Positions 24,010 to 33,454 of a DNA stretch of 64,000 nt are shown here, piece by piece (the stretch's first letter is position 1; each line of letters starts with the position of its first letter). This DNA comes from an uncultured archaeon (lineage in GTDB: Archaea > Asgardarchaeota > Heimdallarchaeia > Heimdallarchaeales > Heimdallarchaeaceae): contig CAZJUB010000001.1 in assembly GCA_964549075.1 (NCBI GenBank), forward strand, positions 42,610 to 106,609. Direction: 5' to 3'. The translations under genes were made by a program, and so were the position numbers. Below the pieces are notes generated by a model, which was given only the letters and a program-made list of their open reading frames with translations, did no database searches and was not told the DNA's origin.

Positions 24010-25305
24010 ATGTCAGAAGAATATGATTTTGAAGTTGCAATAGTTGGAGCAGGACCTGCTGGGATTGCTGCTGCTTTAACTCTAGCAAATGCTGGTATTG
24101 AGACAGTAGTTCTAGAACGAGGTCAATATCCAGGTGCTAAGAATGTAAGTGGAGCAGCTATTTATGGTCCGTCTTTGCACAAATTAGTTCCCAATTATTG
24201 GGAAGATGAAAAATCATTTGAGCGATATCTAACAACAAAAAAAATAACACTTCTTTCTGAATCTAGTTCAGTAACTATTGACGCTGATTTAAGGAATTTT
24301 TCGCAAGCACCTTATAATGGTGTAACTGTTATTAGGCCAAAGTTTGATAGATGGTTAGCAGAAAAAGCAGAAGAAGCAGGTGCAATGATTCTTCCTGATA
24401 CAATGGTCGAGGATTTGGTATGGAAAGATAAACAAGTTGTTGGAGTAAAATCAGGTGAAGAGGAATTAAGAGTTAAATTAGTAATTCTTGCAGAAGGAGC
24501 GAATGAAATCTTAGTTCAAAAAGCTAAACTGATGAAGAAACCAAAAGCAAAACATTATGCTTTAGGTATGAAAGAAACATATGAGCTTTCTAAAGATAAA
24601 ATAGAACAGAGATTTCATTTAGCTGAAAAGGAAGGACTCAGTAACGAAATATTAGGAACTACAAGAGGTATTCCAGGTGGTGGTTTTTATTATACAAACA
24701 GAGATACAATCTCATTTGGTTTAATACTCAACATGGATGTTCTAACAAAGAAAAAACTTGAAGCACCAGATGTTCTTGAGGAATTTAAAACTCATTCCTA
24801 TATCCAGAAGTTACTCAAAGATGCAAAAATGATAGAATATTCAGCTCACATAATACCTGAAGGTGGCTTCAAACATATGCCAAAACTCTATGGAAATGGA
24901 GTTCTAGTTGCAGGTGACGCTGGAGGAATGGTTCTTAACGCAGGTCTTTATATTGAAGGTATAAATTTTGCTTTAGAATCTGGAAGAATTGCTGGTGAAT
25001 CTGCAATTGAAATACTTAAAACCGAGAGATATACTAAGAAAGAAACCAAAATTTACATGAAAAACCTTAAACAAAGTTTTGTCTATAAAGACTTGAAGAC
25101 CTTTAAACGAGCTTCTCACTTCCTTGAGAACAAACACATGTTCACTACAGCTCCAGATTTAGTAACTTCTCTCATGGAGAGATTATTAAGAAATAATGGA
25201 CAACCAAGGAAAAGAATAGTTGTGACAGCTGTATGGCATGTTTTGAAGAAAACGCCTCTATTTGCTTTGATAAAATTACTATTAGGAGCGGTGAGATCAT
25301 TATGA
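24010..25305 (+). CDS. fixC: ETF:quinone oxidoreductase FixC-like flavoprotein
   Basis: GAGPAG, ERGQYPGAKNVSG, FDRWLA, GGGFYYTN, EYSAHIIPEGG, GDAGG. Confidence 0.92.
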   Translation: MSEEYDFEVAIVGAGPAGIAAALTLANAGIETVVLERGQYPGAKNVSGAAIYGPSLHKLVPNYWEDEKSFERYLTTKKITLLSESSSVTIDADLRNFSQAPYNGVTVIRPKFDRWLAEKAEEAGAMILPDTMVEDLVWKDKQVVGVKSGEEELRVKLVILAEGANEILVQKAKLMKKPKAKHYALGMKETYELSKDKIEQRFHLAEKEGLSNEILGTTRGIPGGGFYYTNRDTISFGLILNMDVLTKKKLEAPDVLEEFKTHSYIQKLLKDAKMIEYSAHIIPEGGFKHMPKLYGNGVLVAGDAGGMVLNAGLYIEGINFALESGRIAGESAIEILKTERYTKKETKIYMKNLKQSFVYKDLKTFKRASHFLENKHMFTTAPDLVTSLMERLLRNNGQPRKRIVVTAVWHVLKKTPLFALIKLLLGAVRSL

Positions 25306-25613
25306 GCAAAGTAAAACAACACAAAACCATTGAAGAGAAATTAGATTTAACAAAGTTTACATCAGATCAAAATTATGCGCATATTACTATCGAACCAGCA
25401 ATATGCAAAGCAAAATGTACAACATATGAATGTGTGTATGGATGTCCAGCTAGCTGCTACAAATTTACGGAAGGTGAAGAAGCTGAAGGTCCGGTATCTT
25501 TTGATTATATTGCTTGTTTAGAATGTGGAACTTGTAAGCTAGTTTGTCCTCATGGAAGTGTAGATTGGCATTATCCAAAGGGTGGATTTGGAGTAGAGTT
25601 CAAATACAGCTAA
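25302..25613 (+). CDS. fixX: FixX-like ferredoxin
   Basis: CVYGCPASCY, CLECGTC, WHYPKGGFGV. Start placed at ATG 25302, overlapping the fixC stop. Confidence 0.9.
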   Translation: MSKVKQHKTIEEKLDLTKFTSDQNYAHITIEPAICKAKCTTYECVYGCPASCYKFTEGEEAEGPVSFDYIACLECGTCKLVCPHGSVDWHYPKGGFGVEFKYS

Positions 25614-27058: not shown

Positions 27059-27928
27059 TTGAGTTCTATGAGTGGAATTGACCAACTTAAGGAAATTATT
27101 CCAGATGTTATAGCTGGATTTGTTAGGTTTGCAGATTATGTTATGATTCCTGACACATCTCCTATAAAAAATAAGAATGTTCTCCTTCCAATCCTTAAAA
27201 GGATGAAAGAGGGAGGAGCTAATGGGTGTCTATTCTATCTTTATGATGAGGAAATGGCCAAATTTCTAAATACAGTTAAAGCAGAAATTAAAAATTTCCC
27301 AATTATGATAATTGTTCGAGCTGCAGAGATGGGTAAAATCATATCTCTGTTGAAAGTCTTAGAATTCAAACCTTTAGTTATTTTTCTAGATTATGCAATT
27401 TCTGACCAAAGAGATAATGATCTTGTGAACAAATATATCAATGGTCTGACTAAATATTCTGATCACATAGGACTTTTCACAATTGAACCGATAGGTACTG
27501 TATCATTCTTTATTACTGCAAACTCCAAAATTAGCGTTTATCTAATTCCTTTCAATATGTTAGGATTTGGTGTACAAAATAGAAGCTTACTAGAAATGAT
27601 AGTCAATTCTTCTGAAATGATTTATGTTTCTATGAATCCACTTGCTCAAGGAAGAATAAAACCACGACAAGCATTCGATTATATAACTACACACAAAATC
27701 CATGGATCACTAATAGAAATAGCTAATATGGATGTTAATTTAGAAGCAATAAAGTTTGCGAAATATTTCTTTGAGACACATGATTTCTTGCAAATAGCGT
27801 TAGAATTTGAAGATCATTCAGAGGTTTGTGAGACATGTGGTTTGGGAATGTACAGATATTTTCCACCCTCAGGTGGTAGTGGATTCTATTGCCCACAATG
27901 CCAATCTACAAAGGAAACTCCTAAGTAA
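27059..27928 (+). CDS. Hypothetical protein, degenerate aldo/keto-reductase-like barrel with C-terminal zinc ribbon
   Basis: LIPFNMLG and MNPLAQGRI segments, C-terminal CETC-x15-CPQC. Confidence 0.55.
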   Translation: MSSMSGIDQLKEIIPDVIAGFVRFADYVMIPDTSPIKNKNVLLPILKRMKEGGANGCLFYLYDEEMAKFLNTVKAEIKNFPIMIIVRAAEMGKIISLLKVLEFKPLVIFLDYAISDQRDNDLVNKYINGLTKYSDHIGLFTIEPIGTVSFFITANSKISVYLIPFNMLGFGVQNRSLLEMIVNSSEMIYVSMNPLAQGRIKPRQAFDYITTHKIHGSLIEIANMDVNLEAIKFAKYFFETHDFLQIALEFEDHSEVCETCGLGMYRYFPPSGGSGFYCPQCQSTKETPK

Positions 27929-27936
27929 TTGAATAG

Positions 27937-28509
27937 GTGAGAAAGATTAGCAAATGTCCTTTCTGTGGAAGGTCTAATCCAGATAACTCTATTTTTTGTG
28001 CTTATTGTGGGAAAAAGATGAGTGAACAAGTTGCACTAAATTCTTCCCAGACTAACTTGGAAACAACTTTTAAACAGTCTATCTTTAAGATCAAACAACA
28101 AGTTTCCAAATTCATTTCTAATTTAGAATCCAAGGTAGAAGATTCAGCTTCAATATCTTTTGTAAATAAGCAGAGAATACTCAACCTATTAAATCAGGTT
28201 CAGTTTCAGGATCAGCGAGAGTTCGATAAAGATAATGAAGAATTATCCAGTTGGGTTGAGAAAGTTGAAAAAGCCATATCTGGAGAAAAGTGTATTATTT
28301 GTTTACAAGATTTTGTTGTTAAAGAAGGAGAAAAATTAAATGTGATTTTATGTCCATCCTGCAATTATGCAGGGCACCCTAACCATTTTATAGCTTGGTT
28401 AGACACTAGAAAAAACTGTCCAATGTGCCGAAGTAATCTCTCCAAAGAAAACCTGCTCAGAGGTTATTTAGAGCTTAAAAATAATCAGTTAATATTTGTA
28501 AAAATTTAG
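27937..28509 (+). CDS. Zinc-ribbon plus RING-finger protein (putative E3 ubiquitin ligase)
   Basis: N-terminal CPFC...CAYCG, C-terminal CIIC...CPSC-x4-H-x2-H-x3-W-x6-CPMC. Confidence 0.8.
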   Translation: MRKISKCPFCGRSNPDNSIFCAYCGKKMSEQVALNSSQTNLETTFKQSIFKIKQQVSKFISNLESKVEDSASISFVNKQRILNLLNQVQFQDQREFDKDNEELSSWVEKVEKAISGEKCIICLQDFVVKEGEKLNVILCPSCNYAGHPNHFIAWLDTRKNCPMCRSNLSKENLLRGYLELKNNQLIFVKI

Positions 28510-28511
28510 AT

Positions 28512-29324
28512 TTATTTATCATCTTGAGGTTTTTTCTTTTCTAATATTTCTTCTTTATATTTATTTAGTAATTCTTTGAATTCTTGTGCTTTCAATCTTG
28601 GACCATCAGAATATACTATTGGTCCTCCTACACAAATCATTGCTCTATCTTCAAAGTGATAGAATAAACTTTTAACTATTAGATGCTCACTTCCATAAAT
28701 AGGAGCTATTGCTAGGATATTAGAGCCTATTTTTTCTTTTAATTTTCTAACATCTTTAACATCAATATGATCTGCATTTCCTATCCAAAATCCATCAACT
28801 TGAGTTTTTCTGCACCTTTCAGCAACATACAAGAATAATGGTTGTTCATTCACAGTAGCGACTTTGTAAAGCATTGATTCTGGATTTGATAGTAACATTA
28901 AAACAATAATACCAAGATTTCTTTGTTGTGCAAGTAAAGATGCTTTATCAATATTAGCACTAAATGGAGAGAATGTAAAGGCATCGAAGTTTTCTTCTTT
29001 AAACCAAAAGATTGCCGCATCATTGGAAGTATCTATGTCTCCCAATTTATGGTCTATTATAGATAGTAAGTTGTTCTGATGTATTAGTATATTAAGTGAC
29101 CGTATCTGATCTGCTGTTAAACCAATTAGATATTGTCGATTCAATTTAATAACACTACAATAAGGAGCTACGTCTGTTATTATTCGTTTCATAAAAACCA
29201 TTCGATCATCATCTGGCATTACAGCTCGTGACCTTTGAGATGGTAGAGCAGGATCTAAACTGACACATAATTGAGTGTTCTTGCTTCTAGATATCTCAAG
29301 ATATTTTTCTATAAATTGTGACAT
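28512..29324 (-). CDS. pyrF: OMP decarboxylase-like protein (degenerate phosphate-binding motifs)
   Basis: CVSLDP, VIKLNRQY, DHKLGDI core, LSNP. The PGxGxQ and VGR motifs are altered. Confidence 0.8.
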   Translation of the reverse strand: MSQFIEKYLEISRSKNTQLCVSLDPALPSQRSRAVMPDDDRMVFMKRIITDVAPYCSVIKLNRQYLIGLTADQIRSLNILIHQNNLLSIIDHKLGDIDTSNDAAIFWFKEENFDAFTFSPFSANIDKASLLAQQRNLGIIVLMLLSNPESMLYKVATVNEQPLFLYVAERCRKTQVDGFWIGNADHIDVKDVRKLKEKIGSNILAIAPIYGSEHLIVKSLFYHFEDRAMICVGGPIVYSDGPRLKAQEFKELLNKYKEEILEKKKPQDDK

Positions 29325-29437
29325 CTACATATTCACAAGAAAAGAATATTAGACATTGTTTATAATAGTTGTTTTTGTTTCTTGTAGCAATTTTTAAGTA
29401 TCAAACCTAATATGAAATCATTTTATCAACAGAAAAA

Positions 29438-29455
29438 TTTGCAACATTATGCAAA
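29438..29455. promoter_or_regulatory. Palindromic operator candidate TTTGCA-N6-TGCAAA
   Basis: TTTGCAACATTATGCAAA lies between the divergent pyrF-like and HTH-PRTase genes. Confidence 0.6.
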
Positions 29456-29579
29456 GTTCGTATTTTAAATACATATGGTATTTTTGTTTTTATTTAGATG
29501 AAAAGGAAATGTTACAAAACAAATTTCAAGGATATAAGGAATAAATTTGCATAAAATATAATCAAAGAAAAGACATATA

Positions 29580-29595
29580 TTGCACAATATTGCAA
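29580..29595. promoter_or_regulatory. Second operator copy TTGCA-N6-TGCAA
   Basis: TTGCACAATATTGCAA lies about 45 bp upstream of the HTH-PRTase start. Confidence 0.6.
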
Positions 29596-29639
29596 ATCTT
29601 TTTGAATAAGATTAGTTTGAACAAAAAGAAGTGACATAA

Positions 29640-30419
29640 ATGTCTTCCACAAACACTCCTGAAAGTTATATTGATGCTCAAGAAAAATTAATGACTCTAA
29701 ATCTCCTTCAAATAGCTTTTAAAAAATTTGATACATTGGAGAGCTTCAGATCATATTTGTTAACACATGATGTTGAAGTATCTGTTGCAAATCTTTCTCG
29801 CTACATAAATGGTAAAGCTATTCCCAAATCTAAACTTAAAGATTCTCTACTAGAAGTCTTGGTTGATAATAAAGAACTAGGATTAACAATTAAGGACTTG
29901 ATATTAAGCCATATTGATATAAATATAAATGAACAAGGTACTATTTCTGTAAACAATAGTTATCTTCTCAATGATTCGAAGAATCTTAATGCTATCTTGT
30001 TCTTAGCAATTCAACAGAACATAATACCTTGTGGAATTACTAAAATAATAACTGCTGAAGTTGATGGCATTCCAATTGCAACGACTCTTGCTCATTTATT
30101 GAATATTGATTGTGTGTATGCTAGAAAAAAGAAACCTATAGGCACAATGAACTATCACAGTGAAGACATTCTATCTCCAAATACCGGTAGAATAGAGACA
30201 CTCTATTTTCCAGAGAAATTCATACGAAGTAAAGAACAAGTTCTCATTATTGATGATATTATTCGCTCTGGAGCAACACAAACAGCTTTGGTTAATCTTG
30301 TTAGCAAATGTGAAGGGATACCTCTTAAAGTTCTAATTCTAGTTGGTATTGGTGAGCATTGGAAAAAGACGACTAAACTAAGGTTTACTGAATTTCAAGC
30401 TCTTGTACCACTAAGTTAA
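29640..30419 (+). CDS. HTH plus phosphoribosyltransferase domain protein (PurR/Apt-like regulator)
   Basis: N-terminal SVANLSRYINGKAIP HTH, TAEVDGIPIA, YARK, PRPP loop LIIDDIIRSGAT. Confidence 0.85.
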   Translation: MSSTNTPESYIDAQEKLMTLNLLQIAFKKFDTLESFRSYLLTHDVEVSVANLSRYINGKAIPKSKLKDSLLEVLVDNKELGLTIKDLILSHIDININEQGTISVNNSYLLNDSKNLNAILFLAIQQNIIPCGITKIITAEVDGIPIATTLAHLLNIDCVYARKKKPIGTMNYHSEDILSPNTGRIETLYFPEKFIRSKEQVLIIDDIIRSGATQTALVNLVSKCEGIPLKVLILVGIGEHWKKTTKLRFTEFQALVPLS

Positions 30420-30466
30420 AAACTTTAAATCAGATAAATGTATTGTTTAACAGCATTTATCTATAT

Positions 30467-31684
30467 CTAATCTTCGACTTTTAAAAGAAGTTGAGAATCT
30501 TTTACAATATACTTAATAGAACCATACATCATTTTATTCTGAAAAGGAGACCATTTTGCTTTGGATTGTATCCAATTTTCATCGACTAAGAAAGGAGTAT
30601 AAGGATCAATTATCAAAAAGTTCTCTTCTATAGGGTTTTCTCCTATATTAAGCAGTTTTAATGGGAAGTTATGATATGCTTCTATTGCTCTCTCCCATTC
30701 CAATTCTCCTGAGTGAATAAGAGTAATTAAAGCGGGGAGTAGTTCTTGAACACCAGGCATACCACTTAGATTTTCTTTCATTTTTTCTTCTAATGTATGA
30801 GGTGAATGGTCAGAGCTTATCATATCGATAATACCTGTTGATAATCCTTTAATCAGCGAGTTGTTATCAGATTCCTTTCTTAGAGGTGGAGTAACAATCT
30901 TTAATTTCTCATCTAATTCAGAGTTTTGGTTGAAGAAGAGATATCTTGGACAAGTGTCAGTAGTAAGATTTGATGAATTTGCTAACTCTAATAATTTTAA
31001 TGATAGAGAGCTACTAATGTGTGTTATATGAAACTTAAGTGAACTATAATCTTTAGCCCATTGTAATATCTTTTGTATAGCAATAGCTTCAGCTTCAGGA
31101 GGTCTCCGTTTATAATTGGAAAGCTCTCTCTCCATATTTGATAATGTTGTTGAATCTTCTGCATGAAAGATTATTGGTTTAGAAGCTCCAATATCCTCTA
31201 ATTTTTCTAATGCAGACAAAATACTCTCTTCAGAGATTTTTAATTCACCCAAATATTCCGACATATAAATTTTATAAGCATCACAAAATGGTTCTAAAGA
31301 AGCAACTTCATTATAATTATTTTCAGTTATAGCAGCTGCTATTAGAATCTCAACAATTTCTTGTTTTTTAGATAAATTTCGTTTATTTTTAATAGCTTCA
31401 ATAGAATCAGCTAATGGTTTATTATTTGGCATATCTACAACTGTTAGAATACCTCCAAAAAGAGCTGCTTCAGCACCAGAAAGCATATCTTCTTTGTTTT
31501 CATAACCAGGTTCCCTAAAGTTTACATGTAAGTCTACTCCAAATGGTATTCCAAGAAAATCTCGACAATTTATTGTATTATCTTCAAGTCTGAAAATCGA
31601 AGAATCATAATTTACTTCAATATCCTGTATCTGAAAATCCTTTTTTTCTTTATCCCATATTTTAAGTTTCGAGAAAATGACCAT
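30467..31684 (-). CDS. pyrC: Dihydroorotase-like amidohydrolase (altered metal/substrate site)
   Basis: DLHVNFREPG, DMPN, YKIYM, FHAED, HITHIS, PPLR, SDHSPH. Confidence 0.8.
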   Translation of the reverse strand: MVIFSKLKIWDKEKKDFQIQDIEVNYDSSIFRLEDNTINCRDFLGIPFGVDLHVNFREPGYENKEDMLSGAEAALFGGILTVVDMPNNKPLADSIEAIKNKRNLSKKQEIVEILIAAAITENNYNEVASLEPFCDAYKIYMSEYLGELKISEESILSALEKLEDIGASKPIIFHAEDSTTLSNMERELSNYKRRPPEAEAIAIQKILQWAKDYSSLKFHITHISSSLSLKLLELANSSNLTTDTCPRYLFFNQNSELDEKLKIVTPPLRKESDNNSLIKGLSTGIIDMISSDHSPHTLEEKMKENLSGMPGVQELLPALITLIHSGELEWERAIEAYHNFPLKLLNIGENPIEENFLIIDPYTPFLVDENWIQSKAKWSPFQNKMMYGSIKYIVKDSQLLLKVED

Positions 31685-31685
31685 C

Positions 31686-32537
31686 TTAAATCCTCAATTT
31701 TTCTCCTGATGCTAACCTTTTATAGGTACCAAAATCACTAATTTTTTCCAATTGTTCTGTATTAAATATAGGCCCATCTACACAGATTCTCCAACCAGTT
31801 GGATCGACAGCACAATAAGAACATGCCCCAAAACCACATCTCATATATCTATCAGCTAAACTCATTTGCATATCTACTACTTTAGGGTATTTTTTACCTA
31901 TATTGAAAATTACCTTCATCATTTTCTCTGGCCCAGCTACATAAAATACAGAAGGAGTATCATTTTGTTGCAAGAATTTTTCTAAATCTACAGTTGGAAA
32001 TCCTTTGTACCCATAAGAACCATCATCTGTACAAACATGAAAAGTCAATTTATTATTATCATTAAGATTTTGAAACCAATCGAGATACATTAATTTATTC
32101 TTCGTTCTTGCTCCTTCAAAAACATGAATATTTTGCTTTTTCTCTCTGTTTAGGAGAGTAGTTGTTAAGAGTTTAAGAGGAGTCATCCCGAACCCTCCAC
32201 CAATCAATAAATGATTTACATTTTCTGGAGCTTTGAAAGATTTCCCATAAAAACCGCGAATACCTACTAAATCACCTATTTTTTTATTATTCATTGCTTC
32301 AGAACCCAATCCCATTTTTGCAACACCAATTTCAAGAACATTGTCTTCAAATCCTGCTATTCCTATTGGAAATTCATCTACTCCTGGAACCCATAACATT
32401 ATGAATTGACCAGGTAAAGCTTTTGCTTCTTTTATGGGTAATTCTATAAGGAAAGTGTATGTCTCTTCACACTCTTTTTCTTTTGCGATTATTTTACCTA
32501 TTATTGGTTTAGTATTGGGGATTGTTTGTTTTGTCAT
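31686..32537 (-). CDS. pyrK: Dihydroorotate dehydrogenase electron transfer subunit
   Basis: PGQFIMLW, GGGFGMTP, TDDGSYG, MRCGFGACSYC...CVDGPIF [2Fe-2S] motif. Confidence 0.9.
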   Translation of the reverse strand: MTKQTIPNTKPIIGKIIAKEKECEETYTFLIELPIKEAKALPGQFIMLWVPGVDEFPIGIAGFEDNVLEIGVAKMGLGSEAMNNKKIGDLVGIRGFYGKSFKAPENVNHLLIGGGFGMTPLKLLTTTLLNREKKQNIHVFEGARTKNKLMYLDWFQNLNDNNKLTFHVCTDDGSYGYKGFPTVDLEKFLQQNDTPSVFYVAGPEKMMKVIFNIGKKYPKVVDMQMSLADRYMRCGFGACSYCAVDPTGWRICVDGPIFNTEQLEKISDFGTYKRLASGEKLRI

Positions 32538-33454
32538 TTGTGTGCTCCTCCTGTAATTTCTGTTATAGACGAATAATTATTTTCATTCATGTATTTTTTC
32601 ACTTTCATTTGGAAAAATCTTATCATATTTTCAGGATATGCTACTCCTAGCGATGTTCCAAGTTCTACTGCAGTCGCTCCTGCGAGTAGGTATTCAATGA
32701 TATCATCTCCTTTTAAAATACCACCAACACCTATAATTGGGATTTTATCTCCAAAATGCTCGTACAAATCATATACATACCTTATTCCAATTGGTTTGAT
32801 TGCAGCTCCTGCTAATCCTCCGCGTTTACCTCCCAGAATTGGCATTTTAGTTTGGATATCAATAACCATAGCTTTTACTGTGTTTATTGCAACTATAGCA
32901 TCACATCCTCCTTTAATCGCTGCAGAAGCTACTTCGACAATATCACTCACATTTGGTGAAAATTTCACCCATAGAGGAATGTTAGTCTCTTTTCTTAGTG
33001 ATGAAATTATATCAGTAACTGTTTCTGGATCCGTTTCGGCTAGTAAACCTTCCTTATCAGTAATTGGACTATTTAGATTTACCTCAAAAGCTTGAATTGG
33101 TAAATCTTTTATCCCACTGAGAACCTCTACGTATTCCTCTTTATTTTCTCCAAAAATTGAAACTATAGTAGGAACTCCTTTCTCAACCAGTTTTTCTATA
33201 TCAGTTCTAAAAATTTCATATCCTGGATTTGCTAAACCGATAGAGTGTATGATACTTTTGATTTCTTGTAATGCAAAGACGCTAGGATTTGGATTTCCGT
33301 TCCTTCGTTTTGGCCCTATACTTTTTGTTATTACAGCCCCAACTCCTGCTTCATAGATTCTTTGAAGTGTTGAAAAAGTGGTACCTAGGATGCCAGAAGC
33401 TAAAATCAAAGGATTTCTAAATGTTAGTGTCCCAATTTTTGTTTCCATGTTCAT
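32534..33454 (-). CDS. pyrD: Dihydroorotate dehydrogenase family 1B-like FMN subunit (altered active-site loop)
   Basis: NPLILASG, ITKS, VKFSPN, AINT, IIGVGG, LLAGA. The active-site loop reads NLNSPI. Confidence 0.85.
   Translation of the reverse strand: MNMETKIGTLTFRNPLILASGILGTTFSTLQRIYEAGVGAVITKSIGPKRRNGNPNPSVFALQEIKSIIHSIGLANPGYEIFRTDIEKLVEKGVPTIVSIFGENKEEYVEVLSGIKDLPIQAFEVNLNSPITDKEGLLAETDPETVTDIISSLRKETNIPLWVKFSPNVSDIVEVASAAIKGGCDAIVAINTVKAMVIDIQTKMPILGGKRGGLAGAAIKPIGIRYVYDLYEHFGDKIPIIGVGGILKGDDIIEYLLAGATAVELGTSLGVAYPENMIRFFQMKVKKYMNENNYSSITEITGGAHK

Follow-up and report, generated by a model that had tools for sequence, protein, structure and literature searches.

The cluster of pyrimidine-type genes in the window, a 64,000-nucleotide stretch of a Heimdallarchaeaceae genome (G000), is probably the remnant of a purine/pyrimidine supercluster in a species that has given up de novo nucleotide synthesis, a relic whose products are turning into pseudo-enzymes or repurposed enzymes. 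Lesions in PyrC and PyrD are seen where pyrE and purM have been lost. A preliminary description, made from the sequence alone, had reported full-length frames throughout; this was confirmed for all five genes of the cluster, each lying where it had been placed. The features are as follows.

27059-28509, plus strand: two flanking genes (289 aa and 190 aa), the left-hand synteny anchors of the supercluster
28512-29324, minus strand: pyrF2 (pyrF-like), 270 aa, a genus-specific OMP decarboxylase paralog without the phosphate gripper
29381-29553: junction 1, without DNA similarity to the sister genome G023, whose counterpart is 10.2 kb
29439-29454: distal palindrome TTGCA-N6-TGCAA, operator-like
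29580-29595: palindrome TTGCA-N6-TGCAA adjoining prt, operator-like
29640-30419, plus strand: prt (PRT-like), 259 aa, PurR-like, with an N-terminal HTH-like region and a phosphoribosyltransferase domain
30420-30466: junction 2, a 47-bp spacer between the convergent prt and pyrC; the G023 counterpart is 5.2 kb
30467-31684, minus strand: pyrC-like, 405 aa, the genus dihydroorotase ortholog with His55Asn (HVN) and Asn265Thr (TPPLR)
31686-32537, minus strand: pyrK, 283 aa, the electron-transfer subunit, unremarkable
32534-33454, minus strand: pyrD-like, 306 aa, the genus class 1B dihydroorotate dehydrogenase (DHODH) ortholog with Asn70His and the loop SCPN changed to NSPI

The unusual residues listed earlier for the three enzymes are all real by alignment and recur in independent assemblies. 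The best solved match of the PyrD-like protein is DHODB of L. lactis (1EP1, E 1e-44), in which LNAIGL stands opposite IHSIGL and NISCPNVKHGG opposite NLNSPITDKEG. Unlike DHODB, the window protein has Ser for the catalytic Cys, Asn and Ile for the flanking Ser and Asn, and His for the Asn of xNxIGL, and in related lineages the loop is scrambled or deleted. As in DHODB, the FMN-binding lysine motifs TKS and VKFSPN are present (INT is also retained), and the adjoining PyrK has FAD/NAD and 2Fe-2S domains. PyrK was said to keep its Fe-S cysteines, and it does: it matches the DHODB Fe-S domain with four Cys in ...RCGFGACSYC...RICV..., scoring 221.3 with PRK00054.1-1 (cut-off 224). In the PyrC-like protein, compared with the dihydroorotases of M. 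jannaschii (7UOF) and Aquifex (3D6N), HVN stands opposite HVH, TCPRYL opposite TPHH/NPNH and VTPPLR opposite NPPLR; the Arg of FREPG, the Asn of MPN, the Lys of AYK, HAED, HITH and SDH are retained. HVN and TPPLR, like IHSIGL and NSPI in PyrD, are private to this species, but TCPRYL, which had been counted as a deviation, is normal for the genus, TCPRY being present in 17/17 genus PyrC sequences examined.

It is hardly credible that the gene order and the unusual residues stem from an assembly or binning artefact, such as a chimeric contig or consensus errors. The assembly is a MAG of 217 contigs with 3.4% contamination, but both gene junctions are bridged by a contig from run X5 (4716 bp, covering 27601-32316 with 4 differences) and by a contig from X13 (1247 bp, covering 29366-30613), the latter of a different study and habitat label. 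Gene order is identical in G001, which is assembled in 20 contigs, and the PyrC substitutions are identical in three further full-length members from other assemblies (98-99% identity), HVN also occurring in a 154-aa PyrC fragment.

The genes had been interpreted as a paralogous pathway. This did not hold for pyrD, pyrK and pyrC, which are syntenic housekeeping orthologs of this Heimdallarchaeaceae genus: they are single-copy and syntenic with housekeeping genes in 22, 22 and 16 of 24 genus relatives, in the order pyrD-pyrK-pyrC, with a single ortholog of PyrD and of PyrC in each genome. PyrC is missing in 8 of the 24, and type D genomes have dropped pyrC altogether. The window PyrD is orthologous to genus PyrD proteins that carry the canonical SCPN loop of class 1B DHODHs. 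When canonical pyr copies were sought elsewhere in G000, as had been suggested, a genome search found no second one.

At the same locus, G023 has pyrF2, pyrBI, purDFNMELQ-C/S, the PurR-like prt with purP-purP-guaA-pyrE, and pyrF-pyrC-pyrK-pyrD. This full supercluster sits between the same flanks as the window cluster, and the window is without both of the G023 blocks that flank prt. Junction 1 replaces pyrB, pyrI, purD, F, N, M, E, L, Q and C/S of G023, and junction 2 replaces purP, purP, guaA, pyrE and the canonical pyrF. By blastn, window 28099-29380 corresponds to L043 2410-3694 and window 29554-30414 to L043 13886-14745 (junction 1), and window 30465-31000 corresponds to L044 1977-2512 (junction 2). 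The two flanking genes, to which family searches gave no assignment, share 82% and 65% identity with their G023 counterparts, which lie ahead of pyrF2; in G021 and G004, both of type A, they directly precede pyrB. PyrF2 is absent from type A genomes, in which orf190 lies right next to pyrB.

Of 20 G023 proteins searched against G000 by tblastn, pyrI, purD, F, N, M, E, L, Q, C/S, purP1, purP2, guaA and pyrE were absent and pyrB had as its sole match a 37%-identical paralog on contig C24, while family searches of G000 gave nothing above the cut-off for pyrE and no match for purM; such genome-wide absences are limited by the state of the MAG (89.7% complete, 217 contigs, 3.4% contamination). On the contig of the window (C1) there was no match for pyrB, pyrE or carB, in agreement with the preliminary description. 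pyrE and purM co-occur in the same 13 of 24 genus relatives, and both are absent in the other 11 and in G000.

The relic would thus have arisen by two deletions, one on either side of prt, which took away pyrBI with purD-F-N-M-E-L-Q-C/S and purP-purP-guaA-pyrE-pyrF. What remained would be the orthologous pyrD, pyrK and pyrC, the HTH-PRT regulator with two palindromic operators, and the older paralog pyrF2. Since neither a canonical supply of carbamoyl-aspartate nor an OPRT was found, PyrC and PyrD would no longer serve UMP synthesis. The failure to find upp (pyrimidine salvage) in G000 counts against the relic interpretation. Loss of de novo purine genes in an Asgard lineage, as in auxotrophic or partner-dependent relic clusters, is described in a passage on Panguiarchaeum, in which PurF and PurM are missing (PMC12411855). 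Unlike that case, the loss here took place inside one Heimdallarchaeaceae genus with 3-Mb genomes, both deletion junctions can be seen, and altered pathway enzymes survive in G000.

The SCPN loop of PyrD is intact in 14/14 genomes with pyrE/purM (G003 being counted for its type A arrangement) and broken in 5/9 genomes that lack them and have a PyrD sequence, each differently: NSPI in G000, SYLN in G011, SCSS in G010, SYSS in G006, and GYSK with a deletion in G015. Asn70 is lost in the same five. An independent-pairs test gave p 0.125-0.5 with only 4 pairs. In G001, G009, G013 and G024, pyrE and purM are missing yet the PyrD active site is pristine; perhaps DHODH activity can be of use there even when the pathway is gone, or perhaps the loss was recent. 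Among prototroph-invariant columns, 14/152 are changed in the PyrD and 9/114 in the PyrC of G000, as against 0-4 in prototrophs. PyrC lesions likewise vary within the G000 subclade, with H55N and N265T in G000, H55S in P0186, D292A and N265I in P0188, and D292S and N265K in G001.

It had been proposed that the three enzymes were jointly rewired into a new pathway for another heterocycle or a non-phosphorylated substrate, under its own PRPP-sensing regulator. That is unlikely, though several observations speak for it. Substitutions fall at substrate-contacting positions (six of the 14 PyrD changes lie in residues 128-140, and seven at Asn70 or in that loop), the frames are intact and constrained at dN/dS ~0.1, the PyrF2 replacement motifs are conserved within subclades, and pyrC differences within the species number 8 synonymous and 3 non-synonymous (in a partial sample that takes in 38/106 differences) with H55N in all strains. 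However, PyrC, PyrD and PyrK are orthologs rather than paralogs, and pyrC is gone from type D genomes. The coordination itself was not borne out: the PyrC and PyrD changes belong to one species, sister strains with PyrC 98-99% identical have PyrD only 89% identical, with SNSI instead of NSPI, and sister species have other lesions or none, where a new specificity would be expected to be conserved. The operators, moreover, mark pur/pyr promoters in relatives.

Contig C24 carries a second ATCase-like gene (260 bits, above the family cut-off) and a dihydropyrimidinase-like gene, which could act as feeders of PyrC and PyrD. A late pyrimidine pathway might then still work, turning scavenged or ATCase2-made carbamoyl-aspartate, dihydroorotate or orotate into UMP by a single-metal PyrC, a Ser-base PyrD, the HTH-PRT protein as OPRT and PyrF2 as OMP decarboxylase. 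Besides the ATCase-like gene, this has in its favour that PyrD exceeds the NCBIfam DHODH cut-off (295 vs 269), that canonical PyrD sites persist without pyrE in the four genomes named above, and that prt adjoins pyrF2 in 8/8 pyrE/purM-lacking genomes whose locus holds both. It is nevertheless quite improbable, since the PRT domain scores as one of purine or PurR-like type (XPRT 59.6 and purR_Bsub 48.4, with pyrE only 21 bits), the catalytic loop is scrambled or deleted in 5/9 such genomes, type D genomes are without PyrC, and canonical PyrF stands beside PyrF2 in at least 6 genomes. PyrC and PyrD of this species are without a metal-binding His, the catalytic Cys and two Asn that bind orotate. 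Other DHODH classes have Ser as a competent catalytic base, and Asn can ligate metals, so the loss of activity in G000 is one that we only infer from the residues.

Plain decay, in which the genes are functionless leftovers whose disruption has simply not yet come, has a small but real chance of being correct. Catalytic residues are hit, the lesions differ by lineage, type D genomes are already without pyrC, the terminal branch of G000 PyrD is 3.4 times the median (0.22 vs 0.065), and PyrD has diverged by 11% between strains that are 1-2% apart in PyrC. Against this, no frameshift or stop was found in pyrD, pyrK, prt and pyrF2 of the 9 pyrE/purM-lacking genomes examined, and dN/dS across such genomes is 0.07-0.26 (0.09-0.20 for pyrD pairs), including 0.094 at dS 1.05 for pyrD of G010 and G006, which share a loop lesion; between G000 and its nearest species dS is saturated at 1-2.5. 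A 297-aa loop-deleted PyrD forms a conserved group of seven database clusters with the FMN motifs kept, and PyrK has no private change in any otherwise invariant column. The preliminary description had associated canonical close orthologs and a dN/dS near 1 with simple decay or assembly error; the close orthologs are indeed canonical, but dN/dS is ~0.1, which together with the intact frames argues against plain decay.

Under the preferred relic interpretation, PyrC and PyrD would persist as intact, constrained folds, either as pseudo-enzymes or as repurposed amidohydrolase and flavoprotein scaffolds; the pseudo-enzyme option raised earlier fits these two proteins best. A possible parallel comes from Pseudomonas aeruginosa, whose dihydroorotase homolog pDHO (PyrC') stays folded and is described as catalytically inactive yet required for ATCase activity (PMC7053772). 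The window PyrC differs in missing one metal ligand only (His55) and in that a canonical ATCase partner was not found in G000; its lesions are recent and lineage-specific.

The prt product scores 128 bits with PRK08558 (cut-off 184), and its N-terminal region gave no Pfam match. In G023, prt heads the operon purP-purP-guaA-pyrE, divergent from purC/S...purD. The palindrome TTGCA-N6-TGCAA has 2 perfect matches in the window (0.09 expected), both in one intergenic region, and only 3 in the whole genome. An equally spaced pair lies between purC and prt in G023, G014, G008, G005, G021 and G004, and the prt-adjoining copy aligns with a conserved element upstream of prt in relatives. By gene order and motif, prt is predicted to regulate the entire pur/pyr supercluster in relatives, with the palindromes as its operators. 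The earlier view of a PRPP-sensing regulator therefore stands as to type, but not as to a private pathway. PRPP is the effector of B. subtilis PurR, which prt resembles, as it does the PyrR and GfcR regulators built on a phosphoribosyltransferase domain, in its putative DNA-binding N-terminus, its PRT domain and its place at divergent purine-operon promoters with palindromic sites. Unlike PurR, it is of an archaeal lineage and far under the PurR cut-off (48 vs 258.7), and its pur and pyr targets are deleted in G000. It probably still senses PRPP, and its present cis targets would be only prt itself and pyrF2, at the former start of the pur operon.

For the PyrF-like protein, paralogy and loss of the gripper were upheld, and a non-phosphorylated ligand appears plausible. 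PyrF2 forms one clade (SH-aLRT 98) inside the genus PyrF sequences, is under strong purifying selection (dN/dS 0.03-0.15) and persists also where pyrE is missing. It shares with OMP decarboxylase (type 2 PyrF) PF00215 (39.3 bits) and, in alignment with 4LUI and 3R89, LDP, the Lys of KxN (IKLN) and DxKxxD (DHKLGD); its model has the OMPDC fold, the top 50 Foldseek PDB matches all being OMPDC. Unlike that enzyme, it has PIYGSEH for PGVGAQG and VGG for VGR, and it scores 51.4 with pyrF_sub2, below the equivalog cut-off of 110.6, which the canonical PyrF paralog of G023 exceeds at 114.3. None of the 18 PyrF2 sequences (18 genomes) has the gripper Gln loop or the Arg, the replacement motifs being P-I/L-Y-G, GFWIGN and VGGP. 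Ribose-, ring- and carbanion-handling residues would thus be kept without the phosphodianion gripper, and the most likely ligand or substrate of PyrF2 is a non-phosphorylated compound resembling orotidine or uridine. It would be a natural counterpart of the engineered yeast variant Q215A/Y217F/R235A, in which kcat/Km for OMP falls from 1.1e7 to 0.037 per M per s once the three side chains of the gripper are removed (PMC12874384), a drop that also argues against PyrF2 serving a working late pyrimidine pathway.

The pyrimidine-type cluster of the window consists of five genes, and the full-length frames noted for them in the preliminary description (28512-33454) were seen in all five:

28512-29324, minus strand, pyrF-like gene (pyrF2), full-length frame
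29640-30419, plus strand, PRT-domain gene (prt), full-length frame
30467-31684, minus strand, pyrC-like gene, full-length frame
31686-32537, minus strand, pyrK, full-length frame
32534-33454, minus strand, pyrD-like gene, full-length frame

The cluster is probably what is left of a nucleotide supercluster in an organism auxotrophic for nucleotides. On this reading, its PyrC and PyrD, both orthologs, no longer have their ancestral catalytic residues and are becoming pseudo-enzymes or repurposed proteins, accompanied by PyrF2 and a PurR-like regulator. The substitutions first read in the PyrD-, PyrC- and PyrF-like proteins were all reproduced by pairwise alignment to solved structures. The interpretation then placed on them, a paralogous pathway whose active sites were rewired together, was not supported, since PyrC and PyrD are orthologs with private lesions and other lesions are found in sister lineages. 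The odd residues could also have come from assembly error, and this was ruled out by PyrC sequences from other assemblies and by contigs from two sequencing runs. The motifs HVN, TCPRYL and VTPPLR of PyrC recur in three further full-length cluster members from other assemblies (98-99% identical), and HVN also in a 154-aa fragment. Run X5 has a 4716-bp contig that spans 27601-32316 and differs from the window at four places; run X13, which belongs to a separate study with the label marine sediment, has a 1247-bp contig that spans 29366-30613, both gene junctions included. The species occurs in salt-marsh and marine sediments, and among the sequencing runs listed for the locus there was none of RNA. 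Close homologs of the window proteins carry the source names Candidatus Heimdallarchaeota or Heimdallarchaeaceae, in keeping with an Asgard genome.

The search covered 40 relatives, of which 24 (G001-G024) belong to the same genus, and their loci were compared. In G023, which is among the nearest species, the same flanking genes (a radical-SAM-like gene and the genes for a 289-aa and a 190-aa protein) enclose a nucleotide supercluster with the order pyrF2 (-); pyrB, pyrI (+); purD, purF, purN, purM, purE, purL, purQ, purC/S (-); prt, purP, purP, guaA, pyrE (+); pyrF, pyrC, pyrK, pyrD (-). On DNA alignment, positions 28099-29380 of the window match the pyrF2 end of G023, 29554-30414 match prt with 85 bp upstream, and the sequence from 30465 on matches the pyrC end; hence, two G023 blocks of 10.2 kb and 5.2 kb are absent from the window, one on each side of prt. 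Four arrangements were distinguished in the genus.

Arrangements of the locus in the genus
Type A, full supercluster with only the canonical pyrF: G003, G004, G007, G016, G021, G022
Type B, supercluster with pyrF2 in addition: G002, G005, G008, G012, G014, G017, G020, G023
Type C, pyrD-pyrK-pyrC-prt-pyrF2: the window's genome (G000), G001
Type D, pyrD-pyrK-prt-pyrF2 without pyrC: G006, G009, G010, G011, G013, G024; fragments in G018

In G021 and G004, both of type A, the gene for the 190-aa protein directly abuts pyrB; in G015, prt-pyrK-pyrD and pyrC-pyrF2 lie on different contigs. The genes pyrE and purM go together: 13 of the 24 genus relatives have both, and neither was found in G001, G003, G006, G009, G010, G011, G013, G015, G018, G019, G024 or G000 (lacking genomes). 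G003 (72% complete, with its contig stopping directly past pyrF) and G019 (1.2 Mb) are probably merely incomplete. The lacking state requires four changes on the PyrD+PyrK tree; how often the loss happened independently is uncertain, given a gene tree and clear recombination. An independent-pairs test of pyrE/purM loss against loop lesions gave four pairs, a number with which significance is out of reach, of which 2-4 ran in the same direction and none in the opposite one (p 0.125-0.5). G014 (contig C57, loci L045 and L046) has a full supercluster, yet is nested amid type D genomes on the PyrD+PyrK tree; compared with G013 (C175, L052), its pyrD has a dS of 0.13 and its prt a dS of 1.65, which points to recombination or transfer inside the supercluster.

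The pathway genes missing from the window were not found in the rest of G000 either, which is 89.7% complete in 217 contigs. When 20 G023 proteins were searched with tblastn, no match was obtained anywhere in G000 for pyrI, purD, purF, purN, purM, purE, purL, purQ, purC/S, purP1, purP2, guaA or pyrE, and the sole pyrB match was a paralog of 37% identity on contig C24; family searches agreed. The canonical pyrC, pyrD and pyrF copies that the preliminary description proposed to look for were not found in G000. The other two OMPdecase-family matches are both hexulose-6-phosphate-synthase-like, the DHO_dh match on contig C64 is instead PreA-like, with a C-terminal ferredoxin domain and an adjoining SsnA-like amidohydrolase gene, and the C24 amidohydrolase is instead dihydropyrimidinase-like with HVH intact. 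The window genes are therefore the sole candidates for PyrC, PyrD and PyrF. Salvage-type genes in G000 comprise an XPRT/HGPRT-like PRT, a PRPP-synthase-like gene and purA; upp is present in G001, G013 and G007 and was not found in G000 or G023. The large subunit of carbamoyl-phosphate synthase, carB, was not found in G000, G001, G013, G023 or G007 (the best matches reached some 70 bits, the cut-off being 1027), so that carbamoyl phosphate must have another enzyme source, even in prototrophs.

The window PyrD scores above the dihydroorotate dehydrogenase cut-offs (295 and 294.7 bits against 269 and 270 for NF005574 and TIGR01037), with relatives reaching 304-333 bits on the family profiles. PyrK, at 221.3 bits against 224, matches PF10418 and PF00175, has the 2Fe-2S domain and adjoins pyrD. 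Aligned with L. lactis DHODB (1EP1), PyrD has NLNSPI opposite NISCPN, so that the catalytic Cys of the SCPN loop is absent, and IHSIGL opposite LNAIGL, so that the orotate-holding Asn is changed; the FMN-binding motifs TKS, VKFSPN, INT and GVGG align. Within the genus, SCPN is intact in 18 of 23 PyrD sequences, including all 14 genomes with pyrE and purM (G003 being counted by its type A arrangement), and is broken in five of the nine lacking genomes that have PyrD, in each case differently: NSPI in the window, SYLN in G011, SCSS in G010, SYSS in G006, and GYSK with a 9-residue deletion in G015. The same five have lost Asn70, replaced by His in the window and by Ser in the other four. Counted at the columns that do not vary among 13 prototroph genomes (G016, with a truncated PyrD, was left out), the window PyrD has 14 changes in 152, six of them in residues 128-140, against 0-4 in prototrophs by leave-one-out; among the other lacking genomes, G006 has 17, G010 15 and G015 29, and G001 has none and G009 and G013 one each. 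The terminal branch of the window's PyrD+PyrK is 0.22 long, compared with a median of 0.065. The PyrD match of G016 (C162:5013-5927) has one in-frame TGA, which may be a real break, a match overrun or an error.

The loop also varies at closer range. The PyrDs of database entries P0063 and P0064 share only 89% identity with that of the window, and the longest contigs, 38,622 and 18,545 bp, are the same in their records and in those of the 98-99% identical PyrC variants. They keep IHSIGL but have NLSNSITDEDGS at the place of the window's NLNSPITDKEGL. Hence, the PyrD loop is still changing inside the species complex, which is unlike a newly fixed specificity. In a survey of 68 PyrD clusters from Heimdallarchaeaceae (290 aa or longer), 44 have Asn70 and SCPN and 24 deviate in many ways. 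Seven of the deviant clusters (P0122-P0128, 82-100% mutually identical) share a 297-aa form in which a 9-residue deletion takes out the entire SCPN loop and Ser stands for Asn70, with the FMN-binding motifs intact.

The PyrC of the window scores 242 bits against a TIGR00857 cut-off of 279, which says little because canonical relatives (253 and 261) also fall short. In alignments with the M. jannaschii (7UOF) and Aquifex (3D6N) enzymes, HVN stands opposite HVH, so that the HxH metal motif is lost, CPRY opposite PHH/PNH, and TPPLR opposite NPPLR; the other metal ligands (Lys, His, His, Asp) and the substrate Arg and Asn are kept (AYK, HAED, HITH, SDH, FREPG, MPN). Among 17 genus PyrCs, only that of the window has HVN, the other 16 having HVH, and the supposed deviation TCPRYL is the norm, as TCPRY is found in 17 of 17. 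The Asn of NPPLR is kept in 14 of the 17; the window has Thr in its place, G001 Lys and G021 Ser. In G001 the catalytic Asp is replaced as well (SSSHSPH), and database PyrCs of the same subclade bear other lesions, H55S in P0186 and D292A with N265I in P0188; those of prototroph type (P0182-P0185, P0187) are canonical. Changes at prototroph-invariant columns number 9 of 114 in the window, 4 in G001 and 16 in G015, against 0-4 in prototrophs by leave-one-out. An inactive dihydroorotase fold would have a precedent in the pseudo-dihydroorotase PyrC' of Pseudomonas aeruginosa, which, according to PMC7053772, is needed for ATCase activity; the window's genome differs in that canonical pyrB was not found.

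PyrF2 belongs to the OMP decarboxylase family (PF00215, 39.3 against 27 bits), and the catalytic Lys and DxKxxD are present, IKLN and DHKLGD aligning. It falls under the equivalog cut-off of TIGR02127 (pyrF_sub2; 51.4 against 110.6), a profile on which the canonical PyrF and the PyrF2 of G023 score 114.3 and 53.4. Relative to the M. jannaschii enzyme, PIYGSEH stands opposite PGVGAQG and VGG opposite VGR, and the phosphodianion gripper is absent. All 18 PyrF2 sequences form a single clade (SH-aLRT 98) nested amid the genus PyrFs, of which the 12 canonical ones all have PGxGAQGG (PVIGAQGG in G020) and V(G/S)R. The gripper loop is missing from every PyrF2, and the Arg from every one except that of G015; the substitute motifs P-I/L-Y-G, GFWIGN and VGGP are kept inside subclades, and LDP, the Lys of KxNRQ, DHKLxD and SNP are invariant. 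An AlphaFold model (mean pLDDT 73.9, pTM 0.80, residues 168-187 poorly predicted) gave only OMP decarboxylases as top Foldseek PDB matches (TM 0.57-0.72), and, apart from one unnamed cluster (0.91), a protein-cluster search gave OMPdecase clusters throughout. For yeast OMPDC, PMC12874384 reports a kcat/Km for OMP of 1.1e7 per M per s, which falls to 0.037 per M per s once the three side chains of the gripper are removed; with the phosphodianion-truncated substrate, the drop is just 9-fold. By analogy, PyrF2 would not be an efficient OMP decarboxylase, but could bind or handle a non-phosphorylated ligand.

The PRT domain of prt approaches PF00156 (24.6 against 26.3 bits) and PRK08558 (128 against 184), the next best profiles being XPRT and purR_Bsub (48 against 258.7); the N-terminal region has no family match, and the putative HTH in it was read by eye. 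By analogy with PurR of B. subtilis, the protein may bind DNA and sense PRPP. Two copies of the palindrome TTGCA-N6-TGCAA are present in the window of 64 kb, where 0.09 are expected, and both (29439 and 29580) lie in the 315-bp pyrF2-prt intergenic region. A pair spaced by about 141-155 bp is found between purC/S and prt in G023, G014, G008, G005, G021 and G004 (at most one mismatch), with further copies before pyrB and the second purP in relatives. Hence, it was concluded that the bidirectional control region of the pur operons is retained in full in the window, with pyrF2 now occupying the place where the purC operon began. No palindrome with at most one mismatch was found in that spacer in G001 or type D genomes. 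The whole of G000 holds three copies; the third (C20:27969) is flanked by an aldo-keto-reductase-like ORF and a membrane ORF, and was rejected as an operator and taken as probably due to chance because about three copies are expected genome-wide. A complex prediction of the PRT domain (residues 98-259) with PyrF2 gave 0.00 against a mark of 0.32, which has no bearing either way on binding.

Simple decay of the cluster is opposed by low dN/dS and unbroken frames in the lacking genomes.

Pairwise dN/dS (Nei-Gojobori) in lacking and prototroph pairs
pyrD: lacking 0.09-0.20; prototroph 0.04-0.12
pyrK: lacking 0.07-0.15; prototroph 0.06-0.11
prt: lacking 0.10-0.26; prototroph 0.06 (one pair)
pyrF2: lacking 0.03-0.15; prototroph 0.07-0.11

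PyrF2 is thus equally constrained with and without pyrE, and its role is therefore independent of de novo UMP synthesis. For G010 and G006, which have a loop lesion in common, pyrD dN/dS is 0.094 at a dS of 1.05; for the window and G001 the values are 0.11-0.14, at a saturated dS of 1-2. No stops or frameshifts were seen in pyrD, pyrK, prt or pyrF2 across nine lacking genomes. The preliminary description had looked to orthologs and dN/dS for a decision; close orthologs have canonical residues at the altered PyrC and PyrD sites (TCPRYL aside), as its refuting condition asked, but the values for lacking pairs, 0.03-0.26 overall, are not near 1. The PyrF2 match of G010 (C72:2616-3416) has one TAG, which may be a real break, a match overrun or an error.

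Between the window and the X13 strain, synonymous and non-synonymous differences number 8/3 in pyrC, 6/1 in prt, 3/1 in pyrK and 3/5 in pyrD, a small sample of 38 of 106 differences. Divergence from the X13 contigs rises from 0.5-1% (29366-31324) to 4.5-6.7% (31307-32699), which suggests a recombination breakpoint inside pyrC (31300-31550); part of the between-strain PyrD divergence thus reflects a deeper-diverged segment and not just faster protein change. Metagenome contigs searched with PyrC yielded only two distant loci (27-29% identity), of no use for shallow dN/dS.

A further reading, which we regard as unlikely, is that the genes surviving in those Heimdallarchaeaceae that abandoned de novo nucleotide synthesis are a repurposed scavenging and redox module and not debris. 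PyrD, its substrate loop scrambled or deleted, would then form with PyrK an NADH-driven flavoprotein with a new acceptor, and PyrF2, a natural gripper-less OMP decarboxylase linked to scavenging, would sense or act on a non-phosphorylated orotidine- or uridine-like compound, its expression being set by the PRPP-sensing PurR-like regulator.

Read as the relic of a supercluster, the locus bears on annotation, as pipelines would give its genes the names PyrC, PyrD, PyrK and PyrF and ascribe pyrimidine synthesis to the organism. The locus was taken to show that the pyrimidine pathway and all purine synthesis are gone, which alters metabolic reconstructions of Heimdallarchaeia, the Asgard class with the closest known relatives of eukaryotes, in which partner dependence is a central question. 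The genus displays all stages, from the full supercluster through the extra pyrF paralog and the loss of the pur, pyrBI, pyrE and pyrF blocks to the loss of pyrC, together with independent, differing catalytic-residue lesions in the survivors, and is thus a natural series for how enzymes turn into pseudo-enzymes. For enzymology, the leads are PyrF2, a natural homolog of OMP decarboxylase that is conserved and lacks the phosphodianion gripper, and the loop-less PyrD group. Among the papers listed in a literature search, none joined Heimdallarchaeaceae with pyrimidine, nucleotide biosynthesis or dihydroorotate; of two related papers, PMC12411855 deals with Panguiarchaeum and PMC12892359, to judge by its title, with Micrarchaeota.

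A second gene set, conserved genus-wide, is found in G000 (C24:4950-12356 and C64; loci L005 and L007), G001 (C10:38367-58265) and G013 (C19:46229-58082). It contains an ATCase-like gene (260 bits, above the TIGR00670 cut-off), an OTC-like gene, a dihydropyrimidinase-like and an SsnA-like amidohydrolase, and a PreA/PyrD-like flavoprotein with a ferredoxin domain, and occurs whether or not the genome has the pur/pyr supercluster. A breakdown route for pyrimidines or purines that gives carbamoyl phosphate is one possible role, and the set could interact with the relic PyrC and PyrD. Elsewhere in the window, a FixC-like FAD-dependent oxidoreductase gene (24010-25613; 317 bits to the FixC subfamily, under its cut-off) is overlapped at its end by a small Cys-rich frame, and the two look like an ETF-linked oxidoreductase pair unconnected with the pyr cluster.
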